Source of the DNA: a bacterium
Lineage (GTDB): Bacteria > UBA10199 > 2-02-FULL-44-16 > JAAZCA01
DNA: 64,000 bases
NCBI GenBank assembly: GCA_963674695.2
Contig: CAXXGI010000002.1
Span: 224,001-288,000 of the forward strand
Direction: 5' to 3'
The position numbers and the translations under genes were made by a program. How positions within the stretch are numbered: position 1 is the first letter of the stretch; each line of letters starts with the position of its first letter. Positions 10,740 to 47,913 of this stretch are shown here, piece after piece. The notes under the pieces were generated by a model. That model saw nothing but the letters and a program-made list of their open reading frames with translations. It was not told the origin of the DNA and searched no databases.

Positions 10740-10885
10740 AGCCTTCGTCGGGAAGGACATTTTCGGTGACCGCCGTCTCGGCTCACACGCCGCCTCGACG
10801 GCTTTTTCTTCTTTCATCGCATTATCAGAGGCTTCGATCGCGATGAAAGAAGAGATCCCCTCAAATGTCCTTCCCGACGAAGGCT
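10740..10885 (+). repeat. Family-A structured element, copy 1 (~90-nt core, 23-bp closing stem)
   Basis: Core accgccgtctcggctc...gcgatgaaagaagagatcccc; arms 10740-10762 and 10863-10885 are perfectly complementary. Confidence 0.9.
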
Positions 10886-11031
10886 TCATGAAATCACGTC
10901 TGAAGAAGCACCCCGATTCAAGCGGTCGGCATGTCACGTATCCGAATGATGGCTCCCTCATGACGGCCTCGGCTTTACATCGGCGGGTCCTTGGCGATAT
11001 ACCCGGCGGGTTCCTATCAGGAGGAGGGCGT

Positions 11032-13383
11032 ATGCGGTTTTTGGCGGAGACGGAGCGGGTTGTGCCCGAGGGGCGTGAGGCGATCGATGCGTTGCTGGCG
11101 TTGGCGTCCGAGCGTGAGCATCGGTCGCTGACCGAACACGAGACCTATGAGCTGCTTGCGGCCGCGGGGCTTGCTGTGCCGGCGTGGGTCTTTCATCCGA
11201 TCGACGTCGATGTGGATGCGCTCGACGGGGTGTTGCCGCATGCCGGGCCCTTCGTGGCGAAGATGGTCGTGGCGGGACAGACGCACAAGACCGAGCTCGG
11301 TGGCATTGCGCTCAATGTCACCGCCGACAATGCAGGCGATATCATCGAGCGGTTTCGAGCGCAGGCCGCGGGGAAGGTCGAACTCTTGGGCGTGCTCTTC
11401 GTCGATCAGGTTGCGCATGCGCGTGAGTTGGGCGGCGAGATGCTCATCGGTCTCTACCAGGATCCCTTCTTCGGACCCTGTGTGGCGCTGGGCTTCGGCG
11501 GCACCGGAACCGAATACTACAAGTCGATCATGCGGCCGCATGAGGCGCAGGTCTTTATTCCCGCCGACATCGACCTGGATTCGGTGCGGCATATTCTGTC
11601 GCGTCTTCCGGTGGTCGAGATGCTCGAAGGGCGCGTGCGCGGTGCATCGCAGCAACTCTCCTTCGATGCGTTGCTCACGGCTGTGCGCCTCTTTCAGACG
11701 CTGGCACGGTGGTATGCACCCGAAAACCCGGAGGCCGCATGCGTGATCGAGGAGCTGGAGGTCAATCCCGCGATTGCGCATGAGGGGCGCGTGATTGCGC
11801 TCGATGGCGTCTGCATCGTGGGGGAGGCAGATGCGGGAAGCGTGCGTCGACACAAGCCGTTGGGGAAGATCGCCCATCTGCTCGCGCCCAAGAGCATCGC
11901 CATCGCGGGGGTGAGCGCCAAGAATCGAATGAGTCCGGCGGGTATTATCCTCAAGAAGTGTTTGAAGCAGGGGATCGCGTCGGAGCAGATCGTGCTCATC
12001 CATCCGAAGGAGCGCGAGATCGAGGGGATCGCCTGCGTGCCGAACATGGAGGCGATGCTTGCGGCGCGAAACGGCGAGCCCGTCGATTGCCTCGTGGTGG
12101 GTGTGCCGGCAAAGGTCGCGGGTTCGCTCATCGCCGAGTCGTTCGAACGATATGCCGCGCACAGTCTTCAGGTGATCTCAGCCGGGTTCGGCGAAACCGA
12201 GGCGGGGCGTTCCATGCAGCAGGAGTTGAGCACGCGTTTGCAGGCGCTCGACGCCACGCCCGAACGTCGGCCGGTCGTCAATGGTCCGAATACGCTCGGA
12301 AACACCTATCGTGGTTTCGATACCCTCTTCACGCCGCGCTATAAATCCTCCGGCACTGGGGCGGGGCGCACCAACGCCGCGCTCATCTGCCAGAGCGGCG
12401 CGTTCATGATCACGCGCATCTCGGATCTGGCCGACCGGGTCGCGCCGGCCATCGCCGTTTCGGTGGGCAATCAGATGGATCTCTCCGTCACTGATTTTTA
12501 TGAACACCTGCTCGAGGAGGAGGGGATCTCCACCTATGGCCTCTACATCGAGGGGCTCTGTGCGGGCGATGGCATTCGCCTCATGCGCCTGGTGCATGAG
12601 GCGCGCGAGCGGGGAAAGTTCACCGTGATCTATCGGGCGGGGCGCACCGAAGCGGGCATGGAGGCGGCGCGTGGGCATACCGCGGCGATGGCGGGCGACT
12701 ACGATATGTTCGCGCACCTGATGTATCGCTCCTGCGCGATGGTGGCCGACACCTTCGAGCGCTTCGACGACCTGATGATGTTGGCAACTTTCTGCGATCA
12801 GCTTCCCGAGCTCATGCAGGTGCCCGAAGGGCGCATCGGCGTGGCCGCGCTGTCCAACGCGGGGTTTGAAAAATGCGCGATGGCCGATCACCTGATGGAG
12901 CGGGATTCGCTCGCCTTTGAGTTGGCGCCGTTTACACCGGAGACGGTCGAGCGACTTCGGGCCATCTATGCGGAGTATGGCATCGGTGCGATCCTCGATA
13001 TCGGCGAGGTCCTCGATCTCTCGCCGATGATGAGCGATGCGGGATATGAACAGGTCATTCGTACGGTGCTGGATGATACTCATGTCCATTTCGGTGTTTT
13101 CTCGATCGTCCCCGAGACCGGCATGCTCAACACCTGCGAACCGGGCGATCGCCATCGCGAAGACCTGATGCGCGACGGCTCCATCCTCGATCGCCTCGCT
13201 CGAATCCGTCGCGAGGTGCACAAGCCCTTCGTCGTCTCCATCGAATCGGGCTCGCTCTACGATCGCTTTGCCCACGAACTCCTCGCCGCCGGCATCCCCG
13301 CCTTTCGTAGCGCGGACACCGCCGCCCGTGCGGTGGCAACTTGCCTCGATGCCATACGCCCCGATGTCTTGGCGGGTCGTTGA
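11032..13383 (+). CDS. ADP-forming acetate/acyl-CoA synthetase (ATP-grasp domain first, then CoA-binding and ligase domains)
   Basis: HKTELGG, DPFFGPCVALGFGG, ELEVNP; ISAGFGE, GPNTLG, QSGA, SVGNQMD, GHTAAMAG (phospho-His); AGGAGG RBS. Confidence 0.9.
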   Translation: MRFLAETERVVPEGREAIDALLALASEREHRSLTEHETYELLAAAGLAVPAWVFHPIDVDVDALDGVLPHAGPFVAKMVVAGQTHKTELGGIALNVTADNAGDIIERFRAQAAGKVELLGVLFVDQVAHARELGGEMLIGLYQDPFFGPCVALGFGGTGTEYYKSIMRPHEAQVFIPADIDLDSVRHILSRLPVVEMLEGRVRGASQQLSFDALLTAVRLFQTLARWYAPENPEAACVIEELEVNPAIAHEGRVIALDGVCIVGEADAGSVRRHKPLGKIAHLLAPKSIAIAGVSAKNRMSPAGIILKKCLKQGIASEQIVLIHPKEREIEGIACVPNMEAMLAARNGEPVDCLVVGVPAKVAGSLIAESFERYAAHSLQVISAGFGETEAGRSMQQELSTRLQALDATPERRPVVNGPNTLGNTYRGFDTLFTPRYKSSGTGAGRTNAALICQSGAFMITRISDLADRVAPAIAVSVGNQMDLSVTDFYEHLLEEEGISTYGLYIEGLCAGDGIRLMRLVHEARERGKFTVIYRAGRTEAGMEAARGHTAAMAGDYDMFAHLMYRSCAMVADTFERFDDLMMLATFCDQLPELMQVPEGRIGVAALSNAGFEKCAMADHLMERDSLAFELAPFTPETVERLRAIYAEYGIGAILDIGEVLDLSPMMSDAGYEQVIRTVLDDTHVHFGVFSIVPETGMLNTCEPGDRHREDLMRDGSILDRLARIRREVHKPFVVSIESGSLYDRFAHELLAAGIPAFRSADTAARAVATCLDAIRPDVLAGR

Positions 13384-13612
13384 AAAAGGGCCAGACCTTA
13401 CATCGGGGACGGTTCGGGTTTTTGTTAACCTGTTGATAATGCAGGTGAATTCATGGTTTTCGCGTCCATCGAGAACCGTCCCCGATGGCCGGTTTTTGTC
13501 GGATAATTTTGTGGTTTTGGGGCGGTTACGCTGTTATAAAGGAACGACCAACACGGCACCATCGGCCGGGGGACCGAGGAAGCCACGCGAGGTTCGTGGA
13601 AAGGGGTCCCCC

Positions 13613-15292
13613 ATGTCCGACGTACTGCTCGTCTCTGATTCGAACGCCTCCACACCAAAACGCATCGACGATAGCTGGGAACAACAGCGTATCCCGCAAG
13701 AGGATACCCACGCCGAGCGACTTCCAACAGGATCCTGCGAGCCGGTGATGTTCAGCGTGGATGAATTGGCACAGCTCGTCTATCCGCGGCTTTCCGAATC
13801 GCTGCAACAGGAGCTGAACGCTATCGGTCAGACGCGCCAAAAGCCGGGGTGGAGTCAGCTCTCCTTCTTTCTCGGCGGCACCTTCGAGCGCGGCGGGCTC
13901 AACTCGCGTGATCAGCGTACGTCAAGTGTGCGTGTCTGGAATCAAGACAAACAGAAATATATCAGTCGGCGCGTCGCCGACTGGGATCACATCTGGCGCT
14001 CCGAGGCCTTTCGGTATCGGTTCGTCGCGACGGAGGGAACGCTCGGATCGAGGATCGATTCGGATACGAAGCTCTCCGCACACGAAAAACACGTCGTCCG
14101 TCAGGTCATGAATTCGCTTTTGGCCGCAGCCCCCGGCGGCGGTTCGCGAAACCTGATCGAGTCGATCTATTTTCCGAGCTTTCCCCTCGAAGGGGCCGCA
14201 CGCCGCGCGACGCGCGGAAACGTCTTCACGCCGTGCCTCGTCCTCAAGATCAGCGACGGCGACACGATCACGGTCGAGGTGCGGCCCAGCGGCTGTAAAT
14301 CCTATGTGAACGCCATCCGGTTTGCCGGCATCGATACGCCGGAGAAATTTCGGTCGACGAAGTTTTACGCCCAGATGGACGGCATCATCGACAAATGGCG
14401 AAGAGAGGGGCTCGTCTCGAAGCGGGAGATGATGGTGATCGCCGCCAACGAGGAGAGGCGTGCCCAGCTTCGTGCCATCAAGAAATCGACGAGGAGCGTG
14501 AAGCGCACGCCGCTGGAACAGCTTCTGGCCAATCGCATGGAGTATGCGGGGGCTGTGAGTTCGCTCGTCATGAAGGACCTGCTCGCCTGGGCGATGGCGA
14601 AAAAATGCGGGTTTGCCCTGGAGGAGACCTACAACCGCGTCCTCAAGCCCGGCCAGGACCCGATCGCCTGCGACATGGTGACGCTCTACGGCAACTACAT
14701 GCGCGATATCGCGGTCGTGCGCCTCCTCAAACCGGAGCTCATCGAACAGTATATGCGCGAGCGCCTGCCGGTCCTGATGCGCGACGGTGGAAATTTTTCC
14801 TGGCTCAAGGCTTCGCAAGCGGACGTGAATGGCAATAAAGCGGAACCCACCAACGGTCGCGAGCTGTGGGCGAACTATCAGCTCTCGACGCTTTCGAAGG
14901 CGGAGAAGGACTATCTCAAAAAATTGCGCAAGGGCGGGCGCCACAAACTCGCTGACCTGCTCGACCCGGCCAAGTTCCCCGCGCCCTGGGAGATGTTCTC
15001 GCCGAAGAAGACCCGGAAGATGGTGGAGGGATATGCGGCGTTGCTCGACAAACACCCCGACCGCCGCGGCGACTTGAACCTGGCGATGATCGCCATGGGC
15101 GGGTCGTATGCCTACGCCAAGTACCGCAACGACCACACCGACACGTATCTGGCCGCCAGTGCCTTCGTCGAAAAGCATAAGTTGGGAATCTGGGGCGAGG
15201 AGACCGTGCGCCTGCTCGACGTGAACAAATGGATCGTGCGCAACGGAAAGCTCGAGCCCTTCACGCCTCCGAAGGATTGCCTCACATCATAG
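13613..15292 (+). CDS. Thermonuclease (SNase)-domain protein with long N-terminal region and large internal insertion
   Basis: ISDGDTITV, IRFAGIDTPE, and C-terminal LNLAMIAMGGS...KLGIWG SNase motifs. Confidence 0.75.
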   Translation: MSDVLLVSDSNASTPKRIDDSWEQQRIPQEDTHAERLPTGSCEPVMFSVDELAQLVYPRLSESLQQELNAIGQTRQKPGWSQLSFFLGGTFERGGLNSRDQRTSSVRVWNQDKQKYISRRVADWDHIWRSEAFRYRFVATEGTLGSRIDSDTKLSAHEKHVVRQVMNSLLAAAPGGGSRNLIESIYFPSFPLEGAARRATRGNVFTPCLVLKISDGDTITVEVRPSGCKSYVNAIRFAGIDTPEKFRSTKFYAQMDGIIDKWRREGLVSKREMMVIAANEERRAQLRAIKKSTRSVKRTPLEQLLANRMEYAGAVSSLVMKDLLAWAMAKKCGFALEETYNRVLKPGQDPIACDMVTLYGNYMRDIAVVRLLKPELIEQYMRERLPVLMRDGGNFSWLKASQADVNGNKAEPTNGRELWANYQLSTLSKAEKDYLKKLRKGGRHKLADLLDPAKFPAPWEMFSPKKTRKMVEGYAALLDKHPDRRGDLNLAMIAMGGSYAYAKYRNDHTDTYLAASAFVEKHKLGIWGEETVRLLDVNKWIVRNGKLEPFTPPKDCLTS

Positions 15293-15322
15293 CGTTGAAC
15301 TATAGCTGGGGAACGAAGAGAA

Positions 15323-15898
15323 CTATCCGACGGCCGCTTCGCCGAAGGCAAACGCGCGCCTATTGAGTTCGATGACCTTTTCGCCCTTCTTGGCGAAACG
15401 CTTCTCGACGTCGGCGATAATTCCCTCTTTGAGGTTATCGAGATCGAGGGCGGCGCACAGCGCGCCGACCATGGCGACGTTGATCATGCGCTCGTTTTTG
15501 AGTTCGTCGACCAGCGCATTGGCGTCCACGACGACTGTCTTGCAGCGCTCGGCCAGTGCCGAGAGAATCTTGGCTTCATCCGGATAGGCGATGTTCTTGA
15601 TCGGCCGATTGCTCGTGATCACCACGCCCTCCGGCGAGAGATAGTCGACATAGCGCAGCGCCTCCATCGGTTCGGTGGCGAGGATATAATCTCCCGCCCC
15701 CTTCGGGATGATGTCGCTGTGGATCTCGCCGTCGGAGAGCCGAACGAAGCAGACCACCGCGCCGCCGCGCTGGGCCATACCGTGCACCTCGTTCTGCTTG
15801 GAGTTGAGTCCAAGCTTTCCCGTCTGCGTCACGACCATGGCCGCCGCTGAAACGATTCCCTGTCCGCCAACTCCTGCGAATACGATGTCATATTTCAT
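15323..15898 (-). CDS. iorB: Indolepyruvate:ferredoxin oxidoreductase beta subunit
   Basis: AGVGGQG, EVHGMAQRGGAV and EPMEALR motifs; GGAG RBS. Confidence 0.92.
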   Translation of the reverse strand: MKYDIVFAGVGGQGIVSAAAMVVTQTGKLGLNSKQNEVHGMAQRGGAVVCFVRLSDGEIHSDIIPKGAGDYILATEPMEALRYVDYLSPEGVVITSNRPIKNIAYPDEAKILSALAERCKTVVVDANALVDELKNERMINVAMVGALCAALDLDNLKEGIIADVEKRFAKKGEKVIELNRRAFAFGEAAVG

Positions 15899-15911
15899 GA
15901 TGAACTCCGTG

Positions 15912-16449
15912 AGATGGTGAGATAGCTCAATAGTAAGATGGCTCAACGGCATAAAAGCTTCAAAAAACTACTTCGTGAGTGCTTTGTAAAAATTCGTCAA
16001 CGAGCGACCGACGAGATCGTTGACGCGCCGGAGCTCTTCAAAATCCTCATTTCTGAAATACTCCAATTCTTGAGCAATGAGCATGAATGTTTCAACTTCT
16101 GCATTCGATCCGAGTGCAATGCTGATGAAACGTGATTTTTCTCTATCATAGCGACGACTATAGCCTTCGGCGATGTTGGCTGGAATAGATGCTGCGCATC
16201 GGCGAAGTTGCGAAACGATTCCGTATAGTTCTTCCTTCGGAAAAGACTTGGTGGATCGGTAAACGAGCAAACACTGATCAAATGCAGCTCGCCAAACATC
16301 GAGGTCCTTATATGATTGAATTGCCTTTGCCACCTTTGCCTTTTCACGATGTTCGGCTGTCAAACGACAGCGCTTTATTTGTTTGCGCTATCTCACCATT
16401 ACGCCATCTTGCCATTGAGCCATCTCACGATTGAGCTATCTCGCCATCT
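15912..16449. mobile_element. IVS-like cassette: four-helix-bundle gene bounded by 39-bp imperfect inverted repeats
   Basis: 15912-15950 matches the reverse complement of 16411-16449 at 35/39; arms are built of degenerate 9-mers; cassette is AT-richer than iorA/iorB. Confidence 0.6.
15968..16363 (-). CDS. Four-helix-bundle protein (23S rRNA intervening-sequence protein family)
   Basis: YKDLDVW, FPKEELYGIVSQLRRCAASIPANIAEG and IALGSNAEVET signature; alternative GTG start at 16333. Confidence 0.92.
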   Translation of the reverse strand: MTAEHREKAKVAKAIQSYKDLDVWRAAFDQCLLVYRSTKSFPKEELYGIVSQLRRCAASIPANIAEGYSRRYDREKSRFISIALGSNAEVETFMLIAQELEYFRNEDFEELRRVNDLVGRSLTNFYKALTK

Positions 16450-18049
16450 AACGAATCTGCACACACTTCCTCTTTGCAATTACCACGCTCGGCCCGCGAT
16501 ATTCCAATTCTTCGCGGAGCACGCGGGTGTTCTCCTCGTGATTCTTCGGCAGCGGGGTGATGACGCGCAGGTGCGCGCGGTCGATGCCCAGACCCAGGAC
16601 GAGTTTTTCGAGCGCGGCCTCACCGACGATCGTCTCCTGCCCGCCGGTCATGCCGGTCGTGGAGTTGTCGAGGATGATCGTTGTAAAGGGCGTTCCGCGC
16701 GCGATGCCTTCCGCAAGCGGCGTGATGCCGGAATGGTCGAAGGTGGAGTCGCCGAGCACGGCGATCGCATAAGGCAGGCCCTGTTCGCCGGCGGCCTTGG
16801 CCATGGAGACCGAGGCCCCCATGCAGAGGCAGGAATGGATCGCCTCGAAGGGCGGATAGAATCCCAACGTGTAGCAACCGATATCGGAGAAGACGAGTCG
16901 CTCGGATTCCTTGCCTTCGCACGCGGCCTTTAAGGCCTTGTACGTATCATCGTGCGGGCAGCCGCGGCAGAGTGCCGGCGGGCGCGTGCGGACGAGATCG
17001 TCGCTTGCGGGTGCACAGGCTTTACGCGGCGCCAACCCGAGGGCTGTGCGCACGTTGTCGGCGTTGAGTTCTCCCGAGCGCGGCAGCGTGCCGTCGAGTT
17101 TTCCGTGCACGGGGACAAGCTTTCCGGCCTTGGCCAGATAGGCGGGCAGCATCCGCTCGATGAAGGGATAGCCCTCTTCGATGACGAGGATCTCCTCGGA
17201 AGCGGTGATCAGTTCGCGCACCTTCGATTCGGGCAGCGGGTATTGGCCGATGCGCAGGAAGGAACACTCCAGCCCGCCCTCGGCATAGTTTTCCATGAAG
17301 GAGTTGAATCCCAGTCCCGCGACGACGATGCCCAGCCGCGCTCCAGGCGTGAGCGTGAGTTCGTTGAATGCGCTCGCCTCAGCGGCCTTTACGAGTTCAC
17401 TCTGTTTGCCTAACAGTTTTTCATATTGCGGACGCGCGTTCGACGGCAATAGCGTCCAGCGGTTGAAGTCGGTCGGGATCGTCAGCGTTTTCCGTTCTTC
17501 GGTCGCCGCGAATTCAACCTTCGCGCGCGTGTGGGAGATGCGCGTGGTCAGGCGCATCATCACCGGGATCTCCAGACGTTCAGAGAGCGCAAACGCCTGT
17601 CGCGTCATGTCGTAGGCCTGCTGTTGCGTGTGCGGCTCGAAGCAGGGGATCTGCGCGAAATCCGAAAAGTAGCGGCTGTCCTGTTCGTTCTGCGAGGAGT
17701 GCATCGACGGATCATCGGCGACCGCGATGACCATTCCCCCCGCGCAACCGGTGACCGCCGCGTTCATGAAGGGGTCAGCGGCGACATTCAGGCCCACGTG
17801 TTTCATGTTCACGAGCGCGCGCAGACCGAGCATCGAGGCGCCCACCGCCTCTTCCATGGCGACCTTCTCGTTGATCGACCAGGCGTTCGTGATGCCGCAA
17901 TCGGGGTAGGTGGCGGCGTATTTTTGGATCGCCTCCTGGATCTCGGTGGCGGGCGTGCCCGGATAGGCGTAGCTGCCGGAGATGCCGGCATGGATGGCGG
18001 CCATGGCCACCGCTTCGTCGCCCAGAAGCGTCATGGTGTGTGCGGTCAT
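16448..18049 (-). CDS. iorA: Indolepyruvate:ferredoxin oxidoreductase alpha subunit
   Basis: YPGTPATEI, NEKVAME, MKHVGLNVAADP, SSQNEQDSR, CRGCPH, DIGCY and GDSTF..SG TPP motif. Confidence 0.93.
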   Translation of the reverse strand: MTAHTMTLLGDEAVAMAAIHAGISGSYAYPGTPATEIQEAIQKYAATYPDCGITNAWSINEKVAMEEAVGASMLGLRALVNMKHVGLNVAADPFMNAAVTGCAGGMVIAVADDPSMHSSQNEQDSRYFSDFAQIPCFEPHTQQQAYDMTRQAFALSERLEIPVMMRLTTRISHTRAKVEFAATEERKTLTIPTDFNRWTLLPSNARPQYEKLLGKQSELVKAAEASAFNELTLTPGARLGIVVAGLGFNSFMENYAEGGLECSFLRIGQYPLPESKVRELITASEEILVIEEGYPFIERMLPAYLAKAGKLVPVHGKLDGTLPRSGELNADNVRTALGLAPRKACAPASDDLVRTRPPALCRGCPHDDTYKALKAACEGKESERLVFSDIGCYTLGFYPPFEAIHSCLCMGASVSMAKAAGEQGLPYAIAVLGDSTFDHSGITPLAEGIARGTPFTTIILDNSTTGMTGGQETIVGEAALEKLVLGLGIDRAHLRVITPLPKNHEENTRVLREELEYRGPSVVIAKRKCVQIR

Positions 18050-18171
18050 AAGAACCCTCCCCACGTGCGAGCAGAAGCGCTCGCGCGTCCATCGTATAGT
18101 CCGGCAAAGGGCTTCAAGTCAAATACTGGCGCGCGATACCGCCTCCTTCCTATGCCGATGTTCTCTTCGTG

Positions 18172-18315
18172 GCCTTCATCTGAAGGAATGGCAGGGGGGA
18201 CCGCCGTCTCGGCTCAAACGCCGCCTCGACGGCTTTTTCTTCTTTCATCGCAGCATTATAGGCTTCGATTGCGATGAAAGAAGAGATCCCCTCTGCCATT
18301 CCTTCAGGTGAAGGC
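18172..18315 (+). repeat. Family-A structured element, copy 2 (~28-bp closing stem)
   Basis: Same core as at 10770; arms gccttcatctgaaggaatggcagggggg / cccctctgccattccttcaggtgaaggc with two G-T pairs. Confidence 0.9.
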
Positions 18316-18401
18316 TCCAGAGGATGATAGGGCAGGGGTTGCAAACGCTTATGGGGTGTGGTCTGCTGCCGCCCGCTGCTGAAAACTCAAGGAGGCAACA
18401 C

Positions 18402-20144: not shown

Positions 20145-20167
20145 TCTCGAGGCAATAGCACGCGCTC

Positions 20168-20194
20168 AGGGCGGCCTTCGGGCCGCCCTTTTTT
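20168..20194 (+). terminator. Rho-independent terminator
   Basis: agggcggcc ttcg ggccgccct followed by a T-run. Confidence 0.9.
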
Positions 20195-20219
20195 ATCAAT
20201 TCTGTCATTATATAATATG

Positions 20220-20246
20220 CGCAACTTTTCTCCCTAATCGGCGATA
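20220..20246 (+). promoter_or_regulatory. Putative sigma-28-like promoter (CGCA-N18-CGATA)
   Basis: cgcaacttttctccctaatcggcgataa, 27 nt upstream of ATG 20274. Confidence 0.6.
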
Positions 20247-20273
20247 AGGGAAGAACGCAATGAAGGAGAGAGG

Positions 20274-22163: not shown

Positions 22164-22202
22164 TACTTGCATCCAGTGGTACACGGGCGTATTTCGATAC
22201 CC

Positions 22203-36222: not shown

Positions 36223-36249
36223 CGCAACATTCTGTGTTATTCGCCGATA
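36223..36249 (+). promoter_or_regulatory. Putative sigma-28-like promoter with canonical GCCGATAA -10
   Basis: cgcaacattctgtgttattcgccgataa upstream of 36285. Confidence 0.7.
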
Positions 36250-36284
36250 AAAAAGGTAAGGGGTCTGCAGAGGAGAAGACGGTC

Positions 36285-37664: not shown

Positions 37665-37682
37665 GCCGGAGGAGAGTTTCCC

Positions 37683-38216: not shown

Positions 38217-38339
38217 TTCTCGAGATGAGAGATGATGTCAGACAGAGCTGACAAAGGTCTTCTTCCTTCGACAGACTCAAGATAAATGGTTTTGTTTCAA
38301 CGCATTGACTTCCCCCGGGAGCGGTCGTAGAACCCCCTT

Positions 38340-39089: not shown

Positions 39090-40021
39090 AGCGTGCCGCG
39101 CTCATCGTTTTAAAACTCATTCTCCTTGCGGCGATACTCATCGCCATCGCACTCGTCGTGCGCGATGCGCGCGACACGATGCCCCCCGATCGATACGTTG
39201 CCGATGCATCCGCGGCGTTTAAGTTTAAAGAGGCCGCACGCTTTCTTCCCGCCGATGCCGATCTCTGGATCGCCATCGATCTCGCCGCACTTTCACAACA
39301 CGTCTCCCTGCGCGATCACCTGATTGCACTTGCCGGCGATCAGGGCGGCATGGTGGGCGATCTGTCCGCCCTGCTCCTGCAGCCTGCCGGCTCGATGGGG
39401 ATGGCCGTCGTCGTTGGCCGCATGGGCGAGGAAGGATCGCCGCCCGCATTCGCCCTCATCCTGCAGGGGCGCTTCGATGAGGCGAGCCTCCTTCCCACCG
39501 TGCGAGGGATGTTGGCTTCGCAAGCGGATGGCATGGAAGAGCGTCCTTGCGGCGAACGGGCGCTCTTCGTTGAACGTGATACAGAGGCCCCCTTCGGCTT
39601 CATGCTGCTCGATGCAACGCACCTGATCGTGGGCGAAGCCCGAACGATCGAGGCCTTCTTCGGCGCGGGGGGGAAGCCGGCGGCATCCGCTTCCCTCGAT
39701 GGCGTCCAGCCCCAGGGGATCATCTTCGGAGCGCTCACCCTCGGGCCGCGCCTGCGCGCCCTGTTGCCCAGCATCTTTGCCGACATCCCCTCGGTGACGT
39801 TTGCGAGCATCGATCTCAAACAGTTGGTGGCAACTCTTCCCTGTACGAATGCCGATGAAGCCGCACGGCTCACCCTCTTCCTCGAAGGGATGCGTTCGCT
39901 CATCCTCCTCCAACAGCAGGGCAACCAAGCACTCGCCGCCGTGCTCGATCACTGCGCCATCTCAAGCGAGGCAAACGCCGCGCACATCACCTGCACCCTT
40001 CCCTTCAGCGCCGTGCAGTGA
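39086..40021 (+). CDS. Hypothetical protein with N-terminal membrane anchor
   Basis: ATGA overlap with the previous gene; MKRAALIVLKLILLAAILIAIALVV hydrophobic N-terminus. Confidence 0.75.
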   Translation: MKRAALIVLKLILLAAILIAIALVVRDARDTMPPDRYVADASAAFKFKEAARFLPADADLWIAIDLAALSQHVSLRDHLIALAGDQGGMVGDLSALLLQPAGSMGMAVVVGRMGEEGSPPAFALILQGRFDEASLLPTVRGMLASQADGMEERPCGERALFVERDTEAPFGFMLLDATHLIVGEARTIEAFFGAGGKPAASASLDGVQPQGIIFGALTLGPRLRALLPSIFADIPSVTFASIDLKQLVATLPCTNADEAARLTLFLEGMRSLILLQQQGNQALAAVLDHCAISSEANAAHITCTLPFSAVQ

Positions 40022-40056
40022 AGCCCTGATCGGCTGGAATGCTCCGTACTTCCTTG

Positions 40057-40439
40057 CCCGCAATCCACACCCTTCCCTTCGTCGCTCGGGCGCGCTCGCC
40101 TCCCTCGGAGCCTGTCGAAGAACCCTCCGGCTGCAAATTTCGCTGGCATCTGCCTGACAGCGTCAGATTTCGCGAAAAACCCATCAATGTAGCTACGGCT
40201 ACACCTCCTGGTTTTTCACTCATCTTCCTTGTCAGTCAGCGCCATCGAAATTTTCGCTTTCGTCGGGTTCTTCGACAGGCTCCGGCGCCACAAAAAGAGC
40301 GCAGGTTTCAACGACGTGCGTTCGATGTCCTCCTTACGTCGGCCCCGAACGCACGAAACCTGTCGCTCTTTTTGCGACTCATACGGTCGGTCTCGCAAAC
40401 GCGCCTTTAGGCTCCTCCGGGAAGGGTGTGGATTGCGGG
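40057..40439. mobile_element. Nested palindromic element: 21-bp outer stem enclosing a MITE-like unit and a long hairpin
   Basis: Outer IR cccgcaatccacacccttccc / gggaagggtgtggattgcggg; inner IR ggagcctgtcgaagaaccc / gggttcttcgacaggctcc; hairpin caaaaagagcg...cgctctttttg. Confidence 0.7.
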
Positions 40440-40552
40440 ACGAGAAAAGACGATCGTGATTCCGCTGATGAGAATGCCTCGCATGTGCGCCTCGCGCTAA
40501 GTGCGCGCATGAGCTTTTCCAACCAGTTGGGTCACGAGTGTCTTTCCCTTGA

Positions 40553-40700
40553 AGACAACGCCCTGGAGACTCTTCTGTGGGGATCTCTTCTTTCATCGCA
40601 ATCGAAGCCTATAATGATGCGATGGAAGAAGAAAAAGCCGTCGAGGCGGCGTGTGAGCCGAGGCGGCGGTCCCCATAGAAGAGTCTCCAGGGCGTTGTCT
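40553..40700 (-). repeat. Family-A structured element, copy 3 (reverse orientation, ~31-bp stem)
   Basis: Arms agacaacgccctggagactcttctgtgggga / tccccatagaagagtctccagggcgttgtct with 1 mismatch. Confidence 0.9.
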
Positions 40701-40764
40701 CACGGTTGAACGATTTTACGGCCTCATGGTTCCACAGCTTTGCCACGAAGGTGCAGATTTCGGT

Positions 40765-42474
40765 TCAGAGGAACACGGCGGTGCGTTTCATGATGCGGGC
40801 GTCGACGAGGCCGCGGTCGGTCAGGCGCAGTTCGGGAATGACCGACAGCGCGAGGAACGAGAGCGCGAGGAAGGGTTCGTCGACAGCCGAGCCCAAACTC
40901 ACCGCGATCCGATTGAGGTCGGCCAGTTTCTCTGAGACGACCTCAGCCGATGCGTTCGACATCAGTCCCGCCACGGGGAGTTCGAGTCGAGCGCGTTTTT
41001 TTCCGCCCGCAGCGATGGCGAATCCGCCGCCGCTGGCGATCAGGGCGCGTGCCGCAGCGATCATGTCGACATCGCTTGCTCCCACCACGATCAGGTTGTG
41101 CGAGTCGTGACAGACGCTCGAGGCCAGCGCGCCGCGTTTGAGGCCAAATCCGCGCACGAGTCCCACCCCCATGCGACCGCTCGCACGATGCCGTTCGATG
41201 ACCGCGAGTTTGAGGAGATCGCGCGACGGGTCGGCCGCGACGATGCCGTTTACGGGCGTCACGTCGACGATCTCCTCGCGCGTGATGATCTGGTGCGGCG
41301 TGATGCGGATGACGCGCGCGCGGCGCTTGCGCGTGCGCAGCACCAATCGTTCGGCGGCCAGTCCCTTCACATGCATCGAGTTGTGCACGCGCGGTTGTTG
41401 TTTTGGTGTGCAGGGAACGACGAGCTTTCCCTCGCGCGCGACGAGTGTGCCCCCTTTAAAGACCATCTGCGCGCGAAAGTTCTTGAGATTTTCTAGGACG
41501 ACGAGATCAGCGACGTAGCCGATCGCCACGGCACCGGTGCGTCGCTTCAAACGAAAGTAATAGGGGGCATTGTTCGTCGCCATCTGCAGCGCGGTGATGG
41601 GAGCGATGCCTTCGGCCACCGCGCTCCGAAGGATATCGTCGATGTGCCCGTTGGCGATGAGGTCGTGTGCACTGCGGTCGTCCGAGCAGAAACAGCACCG
41701 ATGAGCATTTGCGGGGGTCACGATCGAAGCGAGCTCCGAGAGATTCTTCTCGGTCGTCCCCTGACGAATCATGAGGTGCAGGCCGTCGGCCAGTTTTTCG
41801 CGTGCCTCGCGCGCCGTCGTGCTCTCGTGGTCGGAGTGGATGCCCGCGACGATATAGGCGGCAAGCGCCTTGCCCGTAAGCCCCGGCGCATGGCCATCGA
41901 CGCGCATGCCGGGGATGAGGCGAATCTTCTCGAGGATGGCGCGGGTTCCCGCGATGACTGCGGGATAGTTCATCACCTCTCCTATGCCGATCACGCGCGG
42001 AAGCTTTGTGAGTTTCTTGAGATCGTGCGCGGTGAGCCGTGCGCCGGAGGTGACGAGATTCGACTCGGGCACGCACGAGGGGAGCACGATGTTGACCGTG
42101 AGCGGAAGACCCGCGCTCGCGCGGATCATCCAGCGCACGCCCGCGGCTCCCTCGACGTTGGCGATCTCGTGCGGGTCGGCCACCACCGCGGTCGTGCCGT
42201 GTGGCACCACCGCGCGCGCAAATGCCGCCGGCGTGAGTAGGCTCGACTCGATATGGATATGGCTGTCGGTGAAACCGGCGGAGAGGTAGGCGCCCTTGAG
42301 GTCGATCGTTCGGCGCGCACGGTAATCGCCGAAACCAACGACCACGCCATCGGCGATGGCGACGCTGGTGCGGTGAATCGAGTCAGCAAAGACGGAGACC
42401 ACGCGGGCATTGGTGAGGAGGAGGTCGGCTGGGGTTCTTCCGGCAGCGACGTCGATACGGTGGCGAAGTGTCAT
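40765..42474 (-). CDS. ade: Adenine deaminase
   Basis: DSHIHIESS, DPHEIANV, GEVMNYP, DGHAP, SDHE, CSDD and HDSHN motifs. Confidence 0.95.
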   Translation of the reverse strand: MTLRHRIDVAAGRTPADLLLTNARVVSVFADSIHRTSVAIADGVVVGFGDYRARRTIDLKGAYLSAGFTDSHIHIESSLLTPAAFARAVVPHGTTAVVADPHEIANVEGAAGVRWMIRASAGLPLTVNIVLPSCVPESNLVTSGARLTAHDLKKLTKLPRVIGIGEVMNYPAVIAGTRAILEKIRLIPGMRVDGHAPGLTGKALAAYIVAGIHSDHESTTAREAREKLADGLHLMIRQGTTEKNLSELASIVTPANAHRCCFCSDDRSAHDLIANGHIDDILRSAVAEGIAPITALQMATNNAPYYFRLKRRTGAVAIGYVADLVVLENLKNFRAQMVFKGGTLVAREGKLVVPCTPKQQPRVHNSMHVKGLAAERLVLRTRKRRARVIRITPHQIITREEIVDVTPVNGIVAADPSRDLLKLAVIERHRASGRMGVGLVRGFGLKRGALASSVCHDSHNLIVVGASDVDMIAAARALIASGGGFAIAAGGKKRARLELPVAGLMSNASAEVVSEKLADLNRIAVSLGSAVDEPFLALSFLALSVIPELRLTDRGLVDARIMKRTAVFL

Positions 42475-42650
42475 GGCCGCATTGTAGCCGAGGTTGGCCC
42501 CACTTCCAAGTGTGGAGATAAACCGTTGAAATAAAGGTTTTTTCTTTCGCGGCCTGATAAACGCCGGAAAAAAAATGGCTTTACTTTTGTTTCAACTGCG
42601 GCGTATAAAGTTTCCCGGAACGGAGATGGGGGAGATACAGTTTTCTTTCG

Positions 42651-43634
42651 ATGAAGCTCTGCTCCGAACATCGGGAGCAGTTAACGCTCGCCACCGCCTA
42701 TCGTTTTTCGCAGGCCATCGTCGTTCGCGACGAGGCCAACCCGTTTACGCTCTATCGTCTCTTTCAGGATACCTTCCGCCGCCGCACCACCATCGATCCC
42801 ATCCGAACCGAGGATGATCGCATCTATGTCCTCTTCAACAATTCGATGCGCTATTTTGCCCAGACCATCCTTTTCGGAGGGCGCTTGCCCTTGCCGCATC
42901 AGTGGATCTGCGGGAGGGCGAATGGGGAGCCCGAGCAGGGTCTCCCCTTGAAGGGGCGCCCGGGGTTGGCGGCGGTGGAAGTGGGCTATGGTGCACTCAT
43001 GGGTGCGCGTCTGGATCACAGCCGATTTCATTACATGAGTCCGGATGCGCCGCTGATCGCCGGCGGCCTGGAGCTTGTGGGGGCCAACCTTGAGGGGGCT
43101 GATTTTTCCGGGGCGATTCTGGCGGGGAGCAATTTCTCCGGCGCGATTCTGGCGGGGAGCAATTTCTCCGGCGCGAACCTGACCGACGCCATCCTCGACG
43201 GGGCGTTCATGCTCGATGCGGTTTTGGTGAAGGCCATCCTGCGGCGGGTGTCCATCGATCGAGGCACGCAGGTGACGCGCGAGCAGTTGCGCAGTGGCAC
43301 GCAACGTTCCGGCGTAGTGCAGCAATGGAACCACCTGCATCCGGAAGCGGAGCCGCTGCCGGTGCTCTCGTTCTCGGAGTTACAACAGCAGTACCGTGGC
43401 CCTCAGTCGAAGGAGCCTCCGCGTGCGTCCTATTCCGGGTGGAATGAGATAGTCGAAAATACCCCTGTGCAGACCGATGTTTCGATCGACGAGATGAATG
43501 AGATGGATAGCATGGAAGCAGCGATGGACGCCCCTCCCGGGTTTGTCGGTATGATGGAAGAGATCGCGCCCGATCCCTGGTCCGACCTTGGCCTGTGTTT
43601 TTGCGTGAACGGCTCCCCGCAAAAACTTTTCTGA
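42651..43634 (+). CDS. Pentapeptide-repeat protein with acidic C-terminal tail
   Basis: ANLEGADFSGAILAGSNFSGAILAGSNFSGANLTDA; includes a near-perfect 30-nt tandem duplication. Confidence 0.8.
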   Translation: MKLCSEHREQLTLATAYRFSQAIVVRDEANPFTLYRLFQDTFRRRTTIDPIRTEDDRIYVLFNNSMRYFAQTILFGGRLPLPHQWICGRANGEPEQGLPLKGRPGLAAVEVGYGALMGARLDHSRFHYMSPDAPLIAGGLELVGANLEGADFSGAILAGSNFSGAILAGSNFSGANLTDAILDGAFMLDAVLVKAILRRVSIDRGTQVTREQLRSGTQRSGVVQQWNHLHPEAEPLPVLSFSELQQQYRGPQSKEPPRASYSGWNEIVENTPVQTDVSIDEMNEMDSMEAAMDAPPGFVGMMEEIAPDPWSDLGLCFCVNGSPQKLF

Positions 43635-43729
43635 CGATCGAAGCGAAAGACAATACAATGTAAAACTGTCTGTTGTGTCACCTCTCTCCTTCCTGCTAGT
43701 GAATCTCCTGGGGGAAAAGGAGGCACACG

Positions 43730-44791
43730 ATGAGCAACGTCGATTCCGCAGCCGTTCAACTCCACAACACCCGGATGTTCATCGCACGCAAGGTCCTGGC
43801 CAAGGCGATGGGGGCAACGAGTGAGGCTTCCGATGATGAGGTGGTCAGTTGGGCCGACCTCTTTCGGAGTCGCACCGGTGTCGATGCCTTTCAGCGGAGG
43901 CCAGACCTGTGGGCCCTGCCGCGCTCCAATCTCGACATCGTTCGAACGCCGCTTCGGGGAGATGCCGTACGAAATCCATTCGCCTGGTTCACGCGTTCGC
44001 TTACCTTTTTTCAAAAGCGTCTCGATCAATTGGATATGAGTCTTGGTTGGGGTGTGAATATGAAATCGGCATACGAGGCCTTTCTCAAAGAACAATTCAT
44101 CGAGGGCGCCATCGGCGGTCGGGATGGCCCCAAGACGCTCTGGCGGATGTTCGTCGACAACAAGCTCATCCTGAGCGGGCTGAATTTTTTCGGGATCAAT
44201 CTGCAGGATCAGATCCTGGGTCGCGTGGAGCTGCCCGATGCGAATTTTTCGAGAGCCATTCTTTCCGGGGTGAACATGCAGGCCGCGGATGCCTCGCGGG
44301 CCGTGTTCGACGGCGCCGACTTGAGCGGCGCCCGCATGCTGGCAACGCTCGCACGCGGCGCGAGCTTTGTCGGGGCCGATCTCTCCGGCGCCAACTTGAT
44401 TCATGCGAACCTGATGGGCGCTGATCTGACCGGGGCGGTCCTCGACGATGCGGATATGGAAGGGGTTTGGTTCGATAACAAGATGCGCGTGACGGTGGCG
44501 CAGCTTGAGCGTGCAAAAAACGCCGAGGCGATCATCGAGGCCATCAAGAATCCGAAACCGGATCCCTCCGATTCAGGTCCGAAGGGCGGGGCAGGTCCGG
44601 GCAAAACATCTCTGCGCCTCGTTACGAACGAAGACGGCGCGTCTCAAGCCGGCGCCGCGACGGATGACGGGTTTGGGATTACCGGCGCAGACGGATTGAG
44701 CGATCTCGATGCGGGTGATCCGCTGATGAATGGAGCGGGAGCGGCCACGGGGTTTCCGTTTGTCCTCCCCGTCTCCCCGGTGGGCGCCTGA
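43730..44791 (+). CDS. Pentapeptide-repeat protein with Gly/Pro linker and acidic-then-hydrophobic tail
   Basis: ADLSGANLIHANLMGADLTGAVLDDAD; AGGAGG RBS. Confidence 0.88.
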   Translation: MSNVDSAAVQLHNTRMFIARKVLAKAMGATSEASDDEVVSWADLFRSRTGVDAFQRRPDLWALPRSNLDIVRTPLRGDAVRNPFAWFTRSLTFFQKRLDQLDMSLGWGVNMKSAYEAFLKEQFIEGAIGGRDGPKTLWRMFVDNKLILSGLNFFGINLQDQILGRVELPDANFSRAILSGVNMQAADASRAVFDGADLSGARMLATLARGASFVGADLSGANLIHANLMGADLTGAVLDDADMEGVWFDNKMRVTVAQLERAKNAEAIIEAIKNPKPDPSDSGPKGGAGPGKTSLRLVTNEDGASQAGAATDDGFGITGADGLSDLDAGDPLMNGAGAATGFPFVLPVSPVGA

Positions 44792-45493
44792 TCAGAACTG
44801 ATAGCGCAGCGTCGGCGAGAACTGGAAGGAGACTGCCGTCGAACTACGTGCCAGGACGTGGAGCGCGGTGTCCAGCCCCAGATACCAGTGGTCCTTCCAC
44901 CGCCAGGTGATGCCGCCGCCGGGGATCATGATGTCGGCTGCGGCGTGCTTGCCGTCGATCAGCGCCAGGCCCACGCCCGCCTGCACATACGCGGAGATGC
45001 GCGGGTAGCGCGTGAAGTCGAAGAAGTAGCGCACCTTCGGAACGAAGTTCAGGATGGCGTTCGGCTTGGCGTTCGACTGAAAATCGGTTGCCACCGAGAT
45101 CCCCAGCCCCGCCGAGAGCTGTTCGAAGAAGAAGTATTCCCCCTCGGCCCCCATCGTCATCATCGCATCGATGCCCTTGTTGCCATAATAGATGCCGGGC
45201 GCGACGAGCCCCACGCGAAAGCGTCCGTCGCGGAAGTCCGGCGCGGCGCGCAGAAACGTGACCTCCTCTACGACGGCGACCTCTTCGGTCACCATCACCT
45301 CTTCGGCCGCAGCAGGTTTTGCAGCTGCGTCCGCCGGCTTCGGGGCCGCGTTCGGATCGGGAGCATCGGTCGACTCGATCTCCTCGATGATGACCGCGGC
45401 ATCGGTGTGCCCCTGTTGCGCATGCGCGGCCAGCGGCGCGGTGATGAGGAGCGCGAGGAGTGTTCCTGTGATAATGAAATTTCGTGTGAACAT
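44792..45493 (-). CDS. Small outer-membrane beta-barrel protein
   Basis: Sec signal ending AHA, amphipathic strands, C-terminal LRYQF. Confidence 0.75.
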   Translation of the reverse strand: MFTRNFIITGTLLALLITAPLAAHAQQGHTDAAVIIEEIESTDAPDPNAAPKPADAAAKPAAAEEVMVTEEVAVVEEVTFLRAAPDFRDGRFRVGLVAPGIYYGNKGIDAMMTMGAEGEYFFFEQLSAGLGISVATDFQSNAKPNAILNFVPKVRYFFDFTRYPRISAYVQAGVGLALIDGKHAAADIMIPGGGITWRWKDHWYLGLDTALHVLARSSTAVSFQFSPTLRYQF

Positions 45494-45526
45494 GTCTTCT
45501 CCCTTCGATTGTCATTTCTCATCGAT

Positions 45527-45625
45527 TGTCATCCCCGCCCTTCGGCTACGCTCAGGACAGGCTCCAGCGGGGATCTCGACGTACTCTGACAATCGAGATT
45601 CCCGCTTACCCCCTGCGGGAATGAC
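45527..45625. repeat. Composite REP-like doublet
   Basis: REP loop contains cttcggctacgctcaggacaggctcca; partner is cgagattcccgcttaccccctgcgggaatgaca. Confidence 0.8.
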
Positions 45626-45646
45626 AGCTATATCCTACGTTCATCC

Positions 45647-46384
45647 TTACGCAAACCGCTTGAAAAAATCCACTACGCGTTCGGCGACGAGCGTTTGTTC
45701 GACATCCATCGTCAGCACGTGTTTCGAGCGGGGAAAGATCTCCGTCTCGACGATATCGGAGGCGACCCCCCGCTCGACGATCGCGACATTGGACCGTGGC
45801 GCCACGCGATCGTGCGCGGCGTGCAGCAGCAGCAGCGGGTTCGTGATGCGCCCGAGGTTTGCGGCGATCTCGCGCTGCAGGTCGCTGATCTCGAAGACCG
45901 CGTGCGCGGGAATGCGCGGCAGCGAGAACTGCCGGTAGAGCTCCCTCCCCTCGGGCGTGGAGACGCTCTGGTCGTAGTTTTTGGAGACGGTGCGCACAAG
46001 CGCGTGCAGCGGTGTGTGGCGCACCAGCCCCGTTGCGATCCGTGCAAAAAACCCCAGCCGCATCGGCGTGGCCAGAAGCGCCAGCGCGCGCACGCCCCAC
46101 CCCTCGTCGAGGGCGAGCTTGAGCGAGAGCAGTGCGCCCAGTGAAATGCCGGCGCAGAAGACGCGGTCGGTCTCGCGCCGCAGCGTTTCGAAGGCCGTGC
46201 GTACGGAGCGATACCACTCATCGCAGGTGGATCGATCGAGGTCGTCGACCGAGCCGCCGTGACCGGCCAGACACGGTGCGGCCACGCGAAAATCGGCGGC
46301 GAGGAGTGCCTCCTGGAGGGAGGCAACGGTGGCGGGCGTTCCCGTGAGCCCGTGGAGGACGAGACATCCGAGCGTCATAATCAT
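45647..46384 (-). CDS. Alpha/beta-hydrolase carboxylesterase
   Basis: LHGLTG, GHG, GISLG nucleophile elbow, HDRV (Asp), SKHV (His). Confidence 0.88.
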   Translation of the reverse strand: MIMTLGCLVLHGLTGTPATVASLQEALLAADFRVAAPCLAGHGGSVDDLDRSTCDEWYRSVRTAFETLRRETDRVFCAGISLGALLSLKLALDEGWGVRALALLATPMRLGFFARIATGLVRHTPLHALVRTVSKNYDQSVSTPEGRELYRQFSLPRIPAHAVFEISDLQREIAANLGRITNPLLLLHAAHDRVAPRSNVAIVERGVASDIVETEIFPRSKHVLTMDVEQTLVAERVVDFFKRFA

Positions 46385-46457
46385 AGATGTAGCACAAAGC
46401 GTTCAATTCGCGCGAGCCCTTATTGACAACGCCTGCCCAGACCGATTCAATACGCCC

Positions 46458-47429
46458 ATGTTCGATCTTCTCTGCATTCCGGTGCGCGAACCGCTCGCGC
46501 GCGCCGAGACGGTGCTCTTTCAAGAGCTCTCCTGCGGGATCTCCCCGATGGACGATATCGTGCGCACCGTGGCCGAAGGCGGCGGCAAGCGCATTCGCCC
46601 GGCCGTCTTTTTGCTCGCCGCGGCACTCGTCGGGGTTCCGCTCGAGGCGTCTCCCCCCGTCGCCGCTGCCGTCGAGATGGTGCACCTGGCCTCCTTGCTG
46701 CACGATGACGTCGTCGACGACGCCCCCCTGCGCCGAGGGGCGCCCTCCGCGCGCATGCGCTGGGGAAACCAGGTGAGCGTCCTGGTGGGCGACTTCATCT
46801 GGTCGGCGGCCTCGCGGATCATCGCACAACAGGGCAACACACGCCTCGTCGAAGAGGTCGCCGAAACCGTCCGCGCGATCGCCCTGGGGGAGCTGCTGGA
46901 GATTTCCCATCGCAATAACGTGGCGCTTTCCGAGGAGATCTACGACCGCATCATCGAAGGCAAGACCGCCGCGCTCTTTGCGCTCTGCGGACAAGCGGCG
47001 GCGATTATGGCGGGCGTGGGATCGGAGCTCGAGGCGGCGCTGGTGCGGTATGGTCTGCACCTGGGTCGGGCCTTTCAGCTCACTGACGACGCGCTCGACT
47101 ATCGGTGCGACGAGGGCACGCCGGGCAAACGCGCGGGCGCCGACCTGCGCGCGGGCTACCTCACCTTTCCCCTTATCGTCGCGCGGGCGCAGGCCACACC
47201 CGCAGAGCAGGACGTCATCCGCGATGCCGTCCTGGCGCGCGGGACGAGTCCCGAACAGTTTCGTGAGGTCTGCGCCATCATCGAACGCTACGGCGGCATC
47301 GCGCAGACGCTCGAACGCGCGCGCGCGGCGTCCCAGCGCGCCTGTGATGCGCTCGCACGCTTTCGCCCCTCGATCGAGCGCGACGCCCTCATCGGCATCG
47401 CCGAAGGCATCGTCGACCGACAGGCGTAG
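46458..47429 (+). CDS. Polyprenyl diphosphate synthase (IspB-like)
   Basis: GGKRIRP, ASLLHDDVVD..LRRG, GKTA and AFQLTDDALD motifs. Confidence 0.92.
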   Translation: MFDLLCIPVREPLARAETVLFQELSCGISPMDDIVRTVAEGGGKRIRPAVFLLAAALVGVPLEASPPVAAAVEMVHLASLLHDDVVDDAPLRRGAPSARMRWGNQVSVLVGDFIWSAASRIIAQQGNTRLVEEVAETVRAIALGELLEISHRNNVALSEEIYDRIIEGKTAALFALCGQAAAIMAGVGSELEAALVRYGLHLGRAFQLTDDALDYRCDEGTPGKRAGADLRAGYLTFPLIVARAQATPAEQDVIRDAVLARGTSPEQFREVCAIIERYGGIAQTLERARAASQRACDALARFRPSIERDALIGIAEGIVDRQA

Positions 47430-47480
47430 AGGGCGTTTCCCACACTGTGCATCCTTCTCCTTATGCGGGCTTTCGTCGCG

Positions 47481-47726
47481 TGTTCCACCCTTCAGGGACA
47501 TCCTTCCGTTGCACGCTTTCGCTCCGCTCGCACGTTTTGGCTCTGACTCAAGCCGCCTTTCCTCATGAACTCGCTCGCCGGCGGAAGAAAAACGCATCAG
47601 ATTTCTGGCGGGCTCAGACATCATTCGGAATTGAGATCTTCGATCTCAACCGGCGGCTCTTCGCAGGCCAAAACGGCTTGCTTCGCGAGGCGATGCAACG
47701 GAAGGATGTCCCTGAAGGGTGGAACA
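47481..47726. repeat. Family-B structured element, copy 2 (reverse orientation, 33-bp perfect stem)
   Basis: Arms tgttccacccttcagggacatccttccgttgca / tgcaacggaaggatgtccctgaagggtggaaca; core homologous to 3440-3612. Confidence 0.85.
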
Positions 47727-47759
47727 ACAATAGAGACCATAACGGAATGGATGATTTCG

Positions 47760-47913
47760 TGGAGACATCGAGCGGTAGGGTGTTTTACGGGGATCTCTTC
47801 TTTCATCGCGATCGAAGCCTCTGATGATGCGATGAAAGAAGAATAAGCCGTCGAGGCGGCGCCTGAGCCGAGACGGCGGTTCCCGTAAAACACCCTACCG
47901 CTCGATGTCTCCA
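47760..47913 (-). repeat. Family-A structured element, copy 4 (reverse orientation, 32-bp perfect stem)
   Basis: Arms tggagacatcgagcggtagggtgttttacggg / cccgtaaaacaccctaccgctcgatgtctcca. Confidence 0.9.

Follow-up and report, generated by a model that had tools for sequence, protein, structure and literature searches.

An order-wide family of intergenic repeats with a conserved centre and a variable, paired closing stem

Family A in the window and in the source genome

The window analysed here, a stretch of 64,000 nucleotides at C2:224001-288000 of its source genome (G000; 3.03 Mb in three contigs, C1 to C3, 58.5% G+C), holds four copies of family A, an intergenic repeat of about 150 bases in which a conserved core with two hairpins is closed by a long stem whose arms differ from copy to copy. 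An earlier note on this DNA had reported four such copies; their coordinates and strands were verified, and exactly four are present in the window. Below, "note orientation" means the strand on which that note wrote the core, and the folding strand is its complement. Copies were scored with two covariance models, R1, built from 23 G000 copies, and R2, a second model; the E-values of both are rough. The four copies are as follows:

10740..10885, - strand (putative folding strand; the earlier note wrote +): family A copy 1, with arms at 10740-10762 and 10863-10885 and the core at 10770-10860
18172..18315, - strand (folding strand): family A copy 2, R1 163 bits, with the most divergent arms of the window
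40553..40700, + strand (folding strand): family A copy 3, R2 144.5 bits, the top score in G000
47760..47913, + strand (folding strand): family A copy 4, with 29/29 pairs Watson-Crick and a family M repeat 34 bases away

As had been proposed, all four copies are intergenic according to our own crude codon-likelihood gene calls, which were used for the window and the relatives alike. Both core hairpins, GCCGTC/GACGGC and the 14-bp TCTTCTTTCATCGC/GCGATGAAAGAAGA, were found in each copy, and the flanking inverted repeat comprises 25, 28, 29 and 29 Watson-Crick pairs, the 25 being those of copy 1 (R1 166.9 bits), which lies between divergent genes. For the 21-base core end GCGATGAAAGAAGAGATCCCC, 0.01 occurrences would be expected in the window and four are present; none of 100 shuffles contained it at least four times. 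When folded as whole elements, the four copies gave energies between -85 and -97 kcal/mol on both strands, with z between -12 and -13.3. In copies 1 and 2 the right arm ends 2-8 bases upstream of a likely + strand start codon (window 10843-10890; 18324) and contains GAAGG, so that the ribosome-binding region would sit inside the closing stem of these two copies.

Across G000, BLAST of the core found 33 loci, and the covariance models returned 32 scoring copies, of which 27 belong to the main type and five to an older-looking subtype, A2, that is 74% identical to it. Fragments occur besides, and truncated, internally deleted and nested copies are present. Two loci (C3:391578-391667 and C3:727043-727133) carry an identical 24-base hairpin, CCCGCCTARCCAACCGGCGGGCAGG, inserted in the first-hairpin loop of family A. 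The arms had been described as largely unrelated, which does not hold genome-wide: they are homologous and form a continuum around the consensus GCCATCGTCCGGCAGTGTGTTTTAC (note orientation). This class-I arm is present in near-identical form in about ten G000 copies, and the others diverge from it by paired changes, the four window copies being among the divergent members. The mean gapless distance between arms is 0.47, against 0.74 for random sequence of equal composition, and the mean core distance is 0.084. When 25 arms were compared with G000 by BLAST, six loci away from cores were found, all of them family remnants or mosaics, and there were no insertion sequence (IS) ends among them.

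Furthermore, core and arm distances in G000 are uncorrelated (Mantel r = -0.12, p = 0.77). Window copy 2 and the copy at C2:591885, for example, differ by 2% in the core and by 74% in the arms. The missing correlation suggests exchange between copies, although the scarcity of variable sites in the core may contribute to it. The free core positions, which vary between copies, are confined to the middle of the two loops.

Relatives, element-less sites and travelling arms

BLAST of the core, run with 41 relatives of which none belongs to G000's own genus, matched 2 of 41 genomes, G000 and, by short matches, G008. R2 recovers copies that BLAST misses: it matched 18 of the 22 genomes of the order, in 14 of 18 genera, with 1-33 matches per genome, and with R1, 10 of the 13 genomes in the GTDB family of G000 gave full-length matches. 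Over the class as a whole, R2 matched 22 of 93 genomes at E <= 1e-8, and only five of these are among the 71 outside the order. Because R1 already gives about 50-65 bits to a long inverted repeat by itself, as the reverse-strand matches of the G000 copies show, the relatives' sequences were checked by eye and R2 cut-offs of 1e-5 to 1e-8 were used. To judge from their sequence, the relatives' copies are true homologues. In note orientation they start with a variable arm followed by CTCTCGCT(A/T)CGGC..CTCA.ACGCCG..TCGCCTGC; next come a hairpin with a genus-specific stem and a loop keeping AGGCTT(A/G)GA, then ..GCCGCTCGAG and the complementary arm. The A2 copies share this general type, and the main type of family A therefore looks like a derived, expanded lineage. 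Arms vary among copies within every genome, and two G010 copies combine near-identical cores with different arms.

These repeats are an undescribed, order-wide family of intergenic elements of about 150 bases, with an age no less than that of the order. The earlier note had allowed for a match of the core to a described Rfam family, and none was found: Rfam 15 gave no match in the window at gathering thresholds, only chance-level matches for one copy at E up to 10, and, for six loci of relatives, no match at the element. There was no blastn match among PLSDB plasmids. A scan for the two-loop pattern matched six genome contigs, all from one metagenome-assembled genome, and gave no match in metagenome contigs and none in viral contigs. 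A literature search for a layout with conserved centre and variable arms found nothing relevant, and the parts of the Geobacter metallireducens genome paper that a term search picked out describe other multicopy sequences. In one relative (G005, locus L040), an element copy at 1501-1654 follows an Rfam tmRNA match (710-1262; 89.7 bits), and the latter overlaps a match to group I introns that stays below threshold (39.1 bits; gathering threshold 50).

Next, we compared nine orthologous sites, two of which (L093 and L094) were interpretable; both concern G001 and G010, which are congeneric with 70-85% gene identity. At the first site, the two G010 genes overlap by ATGA, and in G001 a stop codon, an element with 33-bp arms and a new spacer lie between them; no trace of either arm and no palindrome was detected at this site in G010. 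At the second site, a promoter-like box and a terminator hairpin common to both genomes are followed by the element in G001 and by an unrelated palindromic repeat in G010, where neither arm is present. As for the remaining comparisons, the spacers at L037, L047 and L091 were too diverged or occupied by other repeats, and L092, L089, L098 and L100 had one-sided synteny or none.

The arms are also found at places that have nothing else in common. Class-I arms occur at at least ten G000 loci with unrelated flanks. Two G003 copies share arms, and the arm provides the last codons and the stop of two different genes. The element at G012:C4 matches that at G007:C105 (87% over 171 bases, arms included), and its flanking genes match G007:C70. 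Since both arms are absent at the element-less sites and one set of arms can turn up at loci that are otherwise unrelated, the arms move together with the element, and the unit that is gained or lost consists of arms and core together.

These observations speak against one of the two origins offered by the earlier note, in which one flank is duplicated in inverted form on insertion, through a hairpin-primed or template-switch mechanism, and each copy thereby obtains its own arms. The idea draws on the arms of many copies looking unrelated at first sight, and on locus L037 of G010, where the first bases of the perfect 32-bp stem, CGATTTGA, are also the end of the adjoining gene, with its final codons and stop, and the G001 orthologue of this gene ends alike (LKSI*). 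Against an inverted target duplication stand the homology of the arms across copies, their near-identity at unrelated loci, the lack of either arm at the two element-less sites, and the arms matching no other genomic sequence, and this origin is largely refuted and very improbable.

At L094 (G001) and L156 (G010), heptamer arrays of the CGTGAAT or AGCTCAA type stand directly after orthologous stop codons, with a repeat unit that differs by species.

Paired changes, folding strand and orientation

The folding strand is a three-way junction of three parts. P1 is the closing stem of 22-36 bp made by the two arms, and P2 is a hairpin of 14-16 bp with the conserved apical loop AUC.AAGCCU...A. P3 is a region of tentative pairing with an invariant GGCG(U).UGAG, which reads as direct CTCGCT repeats in some genera. 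In an alignment of 23 G000 copies, 95.6% of the cells pair and every one of the 23 P1 pairs changes on both sides; cells changed on both sides number 139, against 34.6 after shuffling, and none of 500 shuffles was as high. The core helices are nearly invariant in this alignment. The P2 stem does vary across genera, as seen in 50 copies from 10 genomes, in which 86.7% of the cells pair (58.0% when shuffled), both-side cells number 603 (200 when shuffled), and covariation is found at 19 of 19 P1 pairs and 11 of 14 P2 pairs. The invariant columns of this cross-genus alignment lie in the P2 loop and in GGCG.NTGA.

A transition mismatch in a stem is a G.U on one strand and an A.C on the other. We therefore counted both kinds after aligning the arms in note orientation by dynamic programming, with an equal penalty for G.U and A.C. 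The results showed 16 A.C and 6 G.U in 24 G000 copies, and 47 A.C and 10 G.U in 50 further copies, giving a pooled ratio of 63 to 16. In a further alignment (A3) read in the opposite orientation, G.U prevailed by 84 to 38. Six G000 copies additionally have a common C.A in the second hairpin (note orientation). The strand bias of these wobble mismatches identifies the folding strand as the complement of the note orientation, and in G000 this strand reads GGGGATCTCTTC...GGCGGTCCCC. The copies are related to one another, so p-values for the wobble counts overstate the case. A mutational strand bias should cancel, because elements stand in both chromosomal orientations, and the mismatches are also spread over many positions. 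Together with the covariation at all P1 pairs, in G000 and across genera, these data bear out the other suggestion of the earlier note, namely a three-way-junction RNA or single-stranded DNA with a closing stem that needs pairing and not sequence. Selection acts on a single-stranded fold, and the wobble data do not tell RNA and single-stranded DNA apart.

As to how the stem changes, wobble or unpaired positions make up about 6% of the arms, G.U intermediates are common on the folding strand, and one or two mismatches can be borne by a stem of about 30 bp. The abundance of G.U intermediates is an argument for ordinary compensation in steps being at work too. Many paired double changes in the arms of the 23-copy alignment are transversions, which need either a mismatch intermediate or a one-step conversion. 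A process of the latter kind has been described as quasipalindrome template-switch correction, in which, during replication, one arm of an imperfect inverted repeat serves as the template for its partner (PMC7202029, according to the part of that source consulted). It is a mutational process and not an element family; it would keep the arms perfectly paired while their sequence changes, and its role in family A is our inference.

The orientation of the copies relative to neighbouring genes was also examined. Among copies located between co-directional genes, the folding strand is co-directional with them in 11 of 14 intact copies in G000 and in 6 of 20 copies in the relatives; the overall tally of 17/34 gives no orientation bias towards neighbouring transcription. 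Simple scans of two copies for an internal promoter or terminator found none. A reading as an intrinsic terminator was rejected, as the two copies scanned had no hairpin followed by a U run; a T run after the first hairpin exists in the G000 main type only, and on the strand without wobble tolerance. Hammerhead-like and kink-turn-like readings of the junction, made by eye, were likewise dropped because the required core residues are not conserved.

Such data bear on whether family A is a multicopy structured non-coding RNA with a cellular role. Its loops would then bind a protein or another RNA, its long perfect stem would act as a stalk for processing or stabilisation (an RNase III substrate, for example, that releases the core from its host transcript), and past spread would have given way to selection at the level of the host. 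Tolerance of G.U is strand-specific in all helices, covariation is of the classical RNA-like kind, loop motifs are conserved throughout the order, and the co-directional majority in G000 (11/14) agrees with this possibility. On the other hand, the relatives reverse that tally, and nothing outside the arms is conserved, so that there is no shared promoter; the promoter and terminator scans of two copies were empty as well. Copy number ranges from 0 to 33, and 4 of the 22 genomes of the order have no copy at all; decayed copies and the presence/absence differences at orthologous sites point the same way. We consider a cellular RNA possible, at odds well short of even.

Possible mobility, candidate enzymes and other repeats

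The explanation that we favour, with a probability of about 0.5, is that family A represents the expanded G000 lineage of an order-wide group of non-autonomous mobile elements of about 150 bases, built like a REPIN or a miniature transposable element with inverted repeats (MITE) turned inside out, with a core that is read in trans on a single strand and a stem selected only for pairing. A trans-acting protein would read the conserved core on single-stranded nucleic acid, and this recognition would constrain the core sequence in every lineage still able to be copied. The arms would need only to close the junction and would be free to drift via wobble or mismatch intermediates, perhaps aided by arm-to-arm templated correction of the quasipalindrome kind, while exchange between copies would uncouple the history of the core from that of the arms. 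Copies can be old enough for such drift, given that the order is no older than the family and that congeneric genes are 15-30% apart.

Several observations weigh against this explanation. Conservation of the core across genera together with G.U tolerance fits a functional RNA equally well. The clean site of the G001/G010 comparison shows no target-site duplication and no conserved insertion motif. At L037 of G010, one arm has as its outer 8 bases the 3' end of a conserved gene, final codons and stop included, an overlap that the model leaves to chance or to later extension of the stem. Judged by GC skew, replication starts near C2:40 kb and terminates near C3:480 kb, and relative to these points the note orientation lies on the leading-strand sequence in 22 cases and off it in 13, with no clear lagging-strand-template bias of the folding strand. 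Three DNA sequencing runs from one study revealed no insertion or excision polymorphism and no joint skipping an element; their short-read contigs break inside the repeats and are thus uninformative on polymorphism.

The remaining objections concern the enzyme. G000 has four RAYT-like Y1_Tnp genes (Y1 HUH transposases of 241-257 aa), which are flanked by two repeat families other than A or M, and no element-linked transposase is present. A copy within about 1 kb of a RAYT-like gene is found only in G012. RAYT genes of the commoner type, seen at locus L033, occur in 17 of the 22 genomes of the order at E <= 1e-20. When E <= 1e-50 is applied, the presence or absence of this gene and of the element agree in only 17 of 22 genomes, which are related and not independent; G015 has 27 copies without an L033-type RAYT, and in G014 the gene is present and the element is not. 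G000 yielded no TnpB, and its single RVT_1 locus (C2:707298-707929) is beside no family A copy. The RAYT-like Y1 HUH transposases are the sole candidate enzyme that can be named, and they are a lead rather than a link.

Among known systems, REPINs come closest, and family A is best regarded as a variant of small palindromic mobile repeat, with a structured RNA as a serious rival. REPINs form a long hairpin in single-stranded DNA or mRNA and carry compensatory changes, according to the part of the source consulted (PMC3116915). Family A resembles them and the repetitive extragenic palindromic (REP) sequences in being short, intergenic, dispersed, non-autonomous and long-lived in its lineage, with RAYT-like genes in the same genomes. 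It is unlike REPINs, which have conserved ends and a variable spacer, in that its centre is conserved (0.084) and its ends vary (0.47). In REPs, a GTAG tetranucleotide stands 5' of the palindrome and is required by the enzyme, as stated in the consulted part of PMC8266576. In contrast, GTAG is found in only some genera with the family A layout (G005 and G007: ..GCCGTAGCGAG..), others having GTAAG or GAAG, and the G000 main type lacks it (..GGCGGTCCCC); the RAYT-like genes of G000 are also not flanked by family A.

The inverted repeats of MITEs such as Correia and ERIC are conserved transposase-binding ends that match an autonomous IS. Family A shares with these MITEs its size, its intergenic sites, terminal inverted repeats that give a long hairpin on transcription, and nested or truncated copies; unlike in MITEs, its inverted repeats are the most variable part, the BLAST search with its arms returned no such IS ends in G000, and there is no target duplication at the clean site. 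Retrons are single loci beside their own reverse transcriptase. The likeness to retron arms a1/a2 that the earlier note had pointed out holds formally, in that a structured core, like msr/msd, is closed by a stem differing between elements, but it goes no further, as family A consists of 32 dispersed copies in a genome with one reverse transcriptase locus and no copy beside it. The IS200/IS605 miniatures (PATE) have a subterminal hairpin at either end and are kin to a resident IS200/IS605 with TnpA and/or TnpB. Compared with them, the family A element has two internal hairpins, no TnpB was found in G000, and the Y1 proteins are RAYT-like, none of them with element-like ends.

REP, REPIN and MITE families are normally defined by conserved ends, where the enzyme binds, and the layout of family A is the opposite throughout an order. 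If an enzyme reads the centre of the junction and ignores the stem, this would be a different recognition logic for mobile DNA. If the stem is under selection for pairing only, it offers a natural experiment on the rate of sequence evolution under a pairing constraint. If family A is an RNA, a lineage that is poorly known and for the most part uncultured would have a new family of structured RNAs in many copies.

A conserved centre with copy-specific arms of 20-40 bp is not confined to family A, as G000 contains two further families, M and G, of the same design. Two family M repeats lie in the window:

3403..3649, + strand: family M repeat, with a 167-base conserved core and copy-specific arms of about 38 bp
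47481..47726, - strand: second family M repeat of the window, with 33-bp arms unlike those at 3403..3649

Family M has the core GCGGAACGAGCCGTTTTGGCC...GCCAAAACGTGCGAGYGGAGCG and is present in G000 as 11 full copies with 30-40 bp arms differing between copies. Family G has the core GGAGGAGTATAAAGGCGCGTTTGCGAGAC...CACGACGAAGGG and variable arms, as at C1:433960-434174, C1:755321-755527 and C3:409405-409635. The families are nested in the manner of Russian dolls, M inside A and several A copies inside the ends of G. Extending the favoured explanation, one may tentatively propose a new class of elements acting on single strands, an "inside-out REPIN", with a three-way-junction core recognised in trans, perhaps by a RAYT-like Y1 HUH protein, or copied via RNA, a stem serving as a near-neutral, sequence-free clamp, and families M and G behaving likewise; we hold this broader proposal to be speculative.

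Two family M repeats carry, at the same position (...GGCGGGYGAG / GAGTTCAYGAGG...), a site-specific 1432-bp IS of the IS110/IS1111 type, with subterminal inverted repeats and a gene for a DEDD transposase of 390 aa (PF01548 + PF02371). Its two copies, 99.3% identical, lie outside the window:

C1:838786-840217, - strand (one of loci L153, L154): IS110/IS1111-type IS
C3:391975-393406, + strand (one of loci L153, L154): IS110/IS1111-type IS

Nesting and site-specific targeting of this kind raise the question of whether the core of family A, as a young mobile insert, landed at the apex of REP-like palindromes that were older and already diverged, the arms being the target. Several features of G000 would suit such an origin: the arms look old and the core young, with uncoupled histories; long palindromes with tiny loops are many; M stands centre-in-centre inside A, and A inside G; and the IS110-type IS targets one repeat family site-specifically. 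An insertion of this kind predicts arm palindromes devoid of a core. The earlier note had similarly considered that the arms might be independent MITE or REP ends, and although they do centre on a recurrent consensus, no core-less arm palindrome was found in G000. In an inverted-repeat scan of this genome (397 repeats with a stem of at least 18 bp within 300 bases), no empty family A palindrome was detected among the short-loop ones listed; these are unlike the arms, except for an internal deletion derivative at C3:782172, the sole related one listed. The clean empty site in G010 is also without any palindrome. An apex insertion is accordingly improbable, if slightly less so than the inverted flank discussed above.

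Two minor features of the repeat landscape of G000 may be added. There are unique palindromes, perfectly paired over 38-41 bp and with a loop of 0-6 bases, for example at C3:7053-7134, C3:635656-635731 and C2:896960-897041. An abundant REPIN-like family, TGTCATTCCCGCGAAGGCGGGAATCTCGA, is also present, and its inner hairpin covaries.

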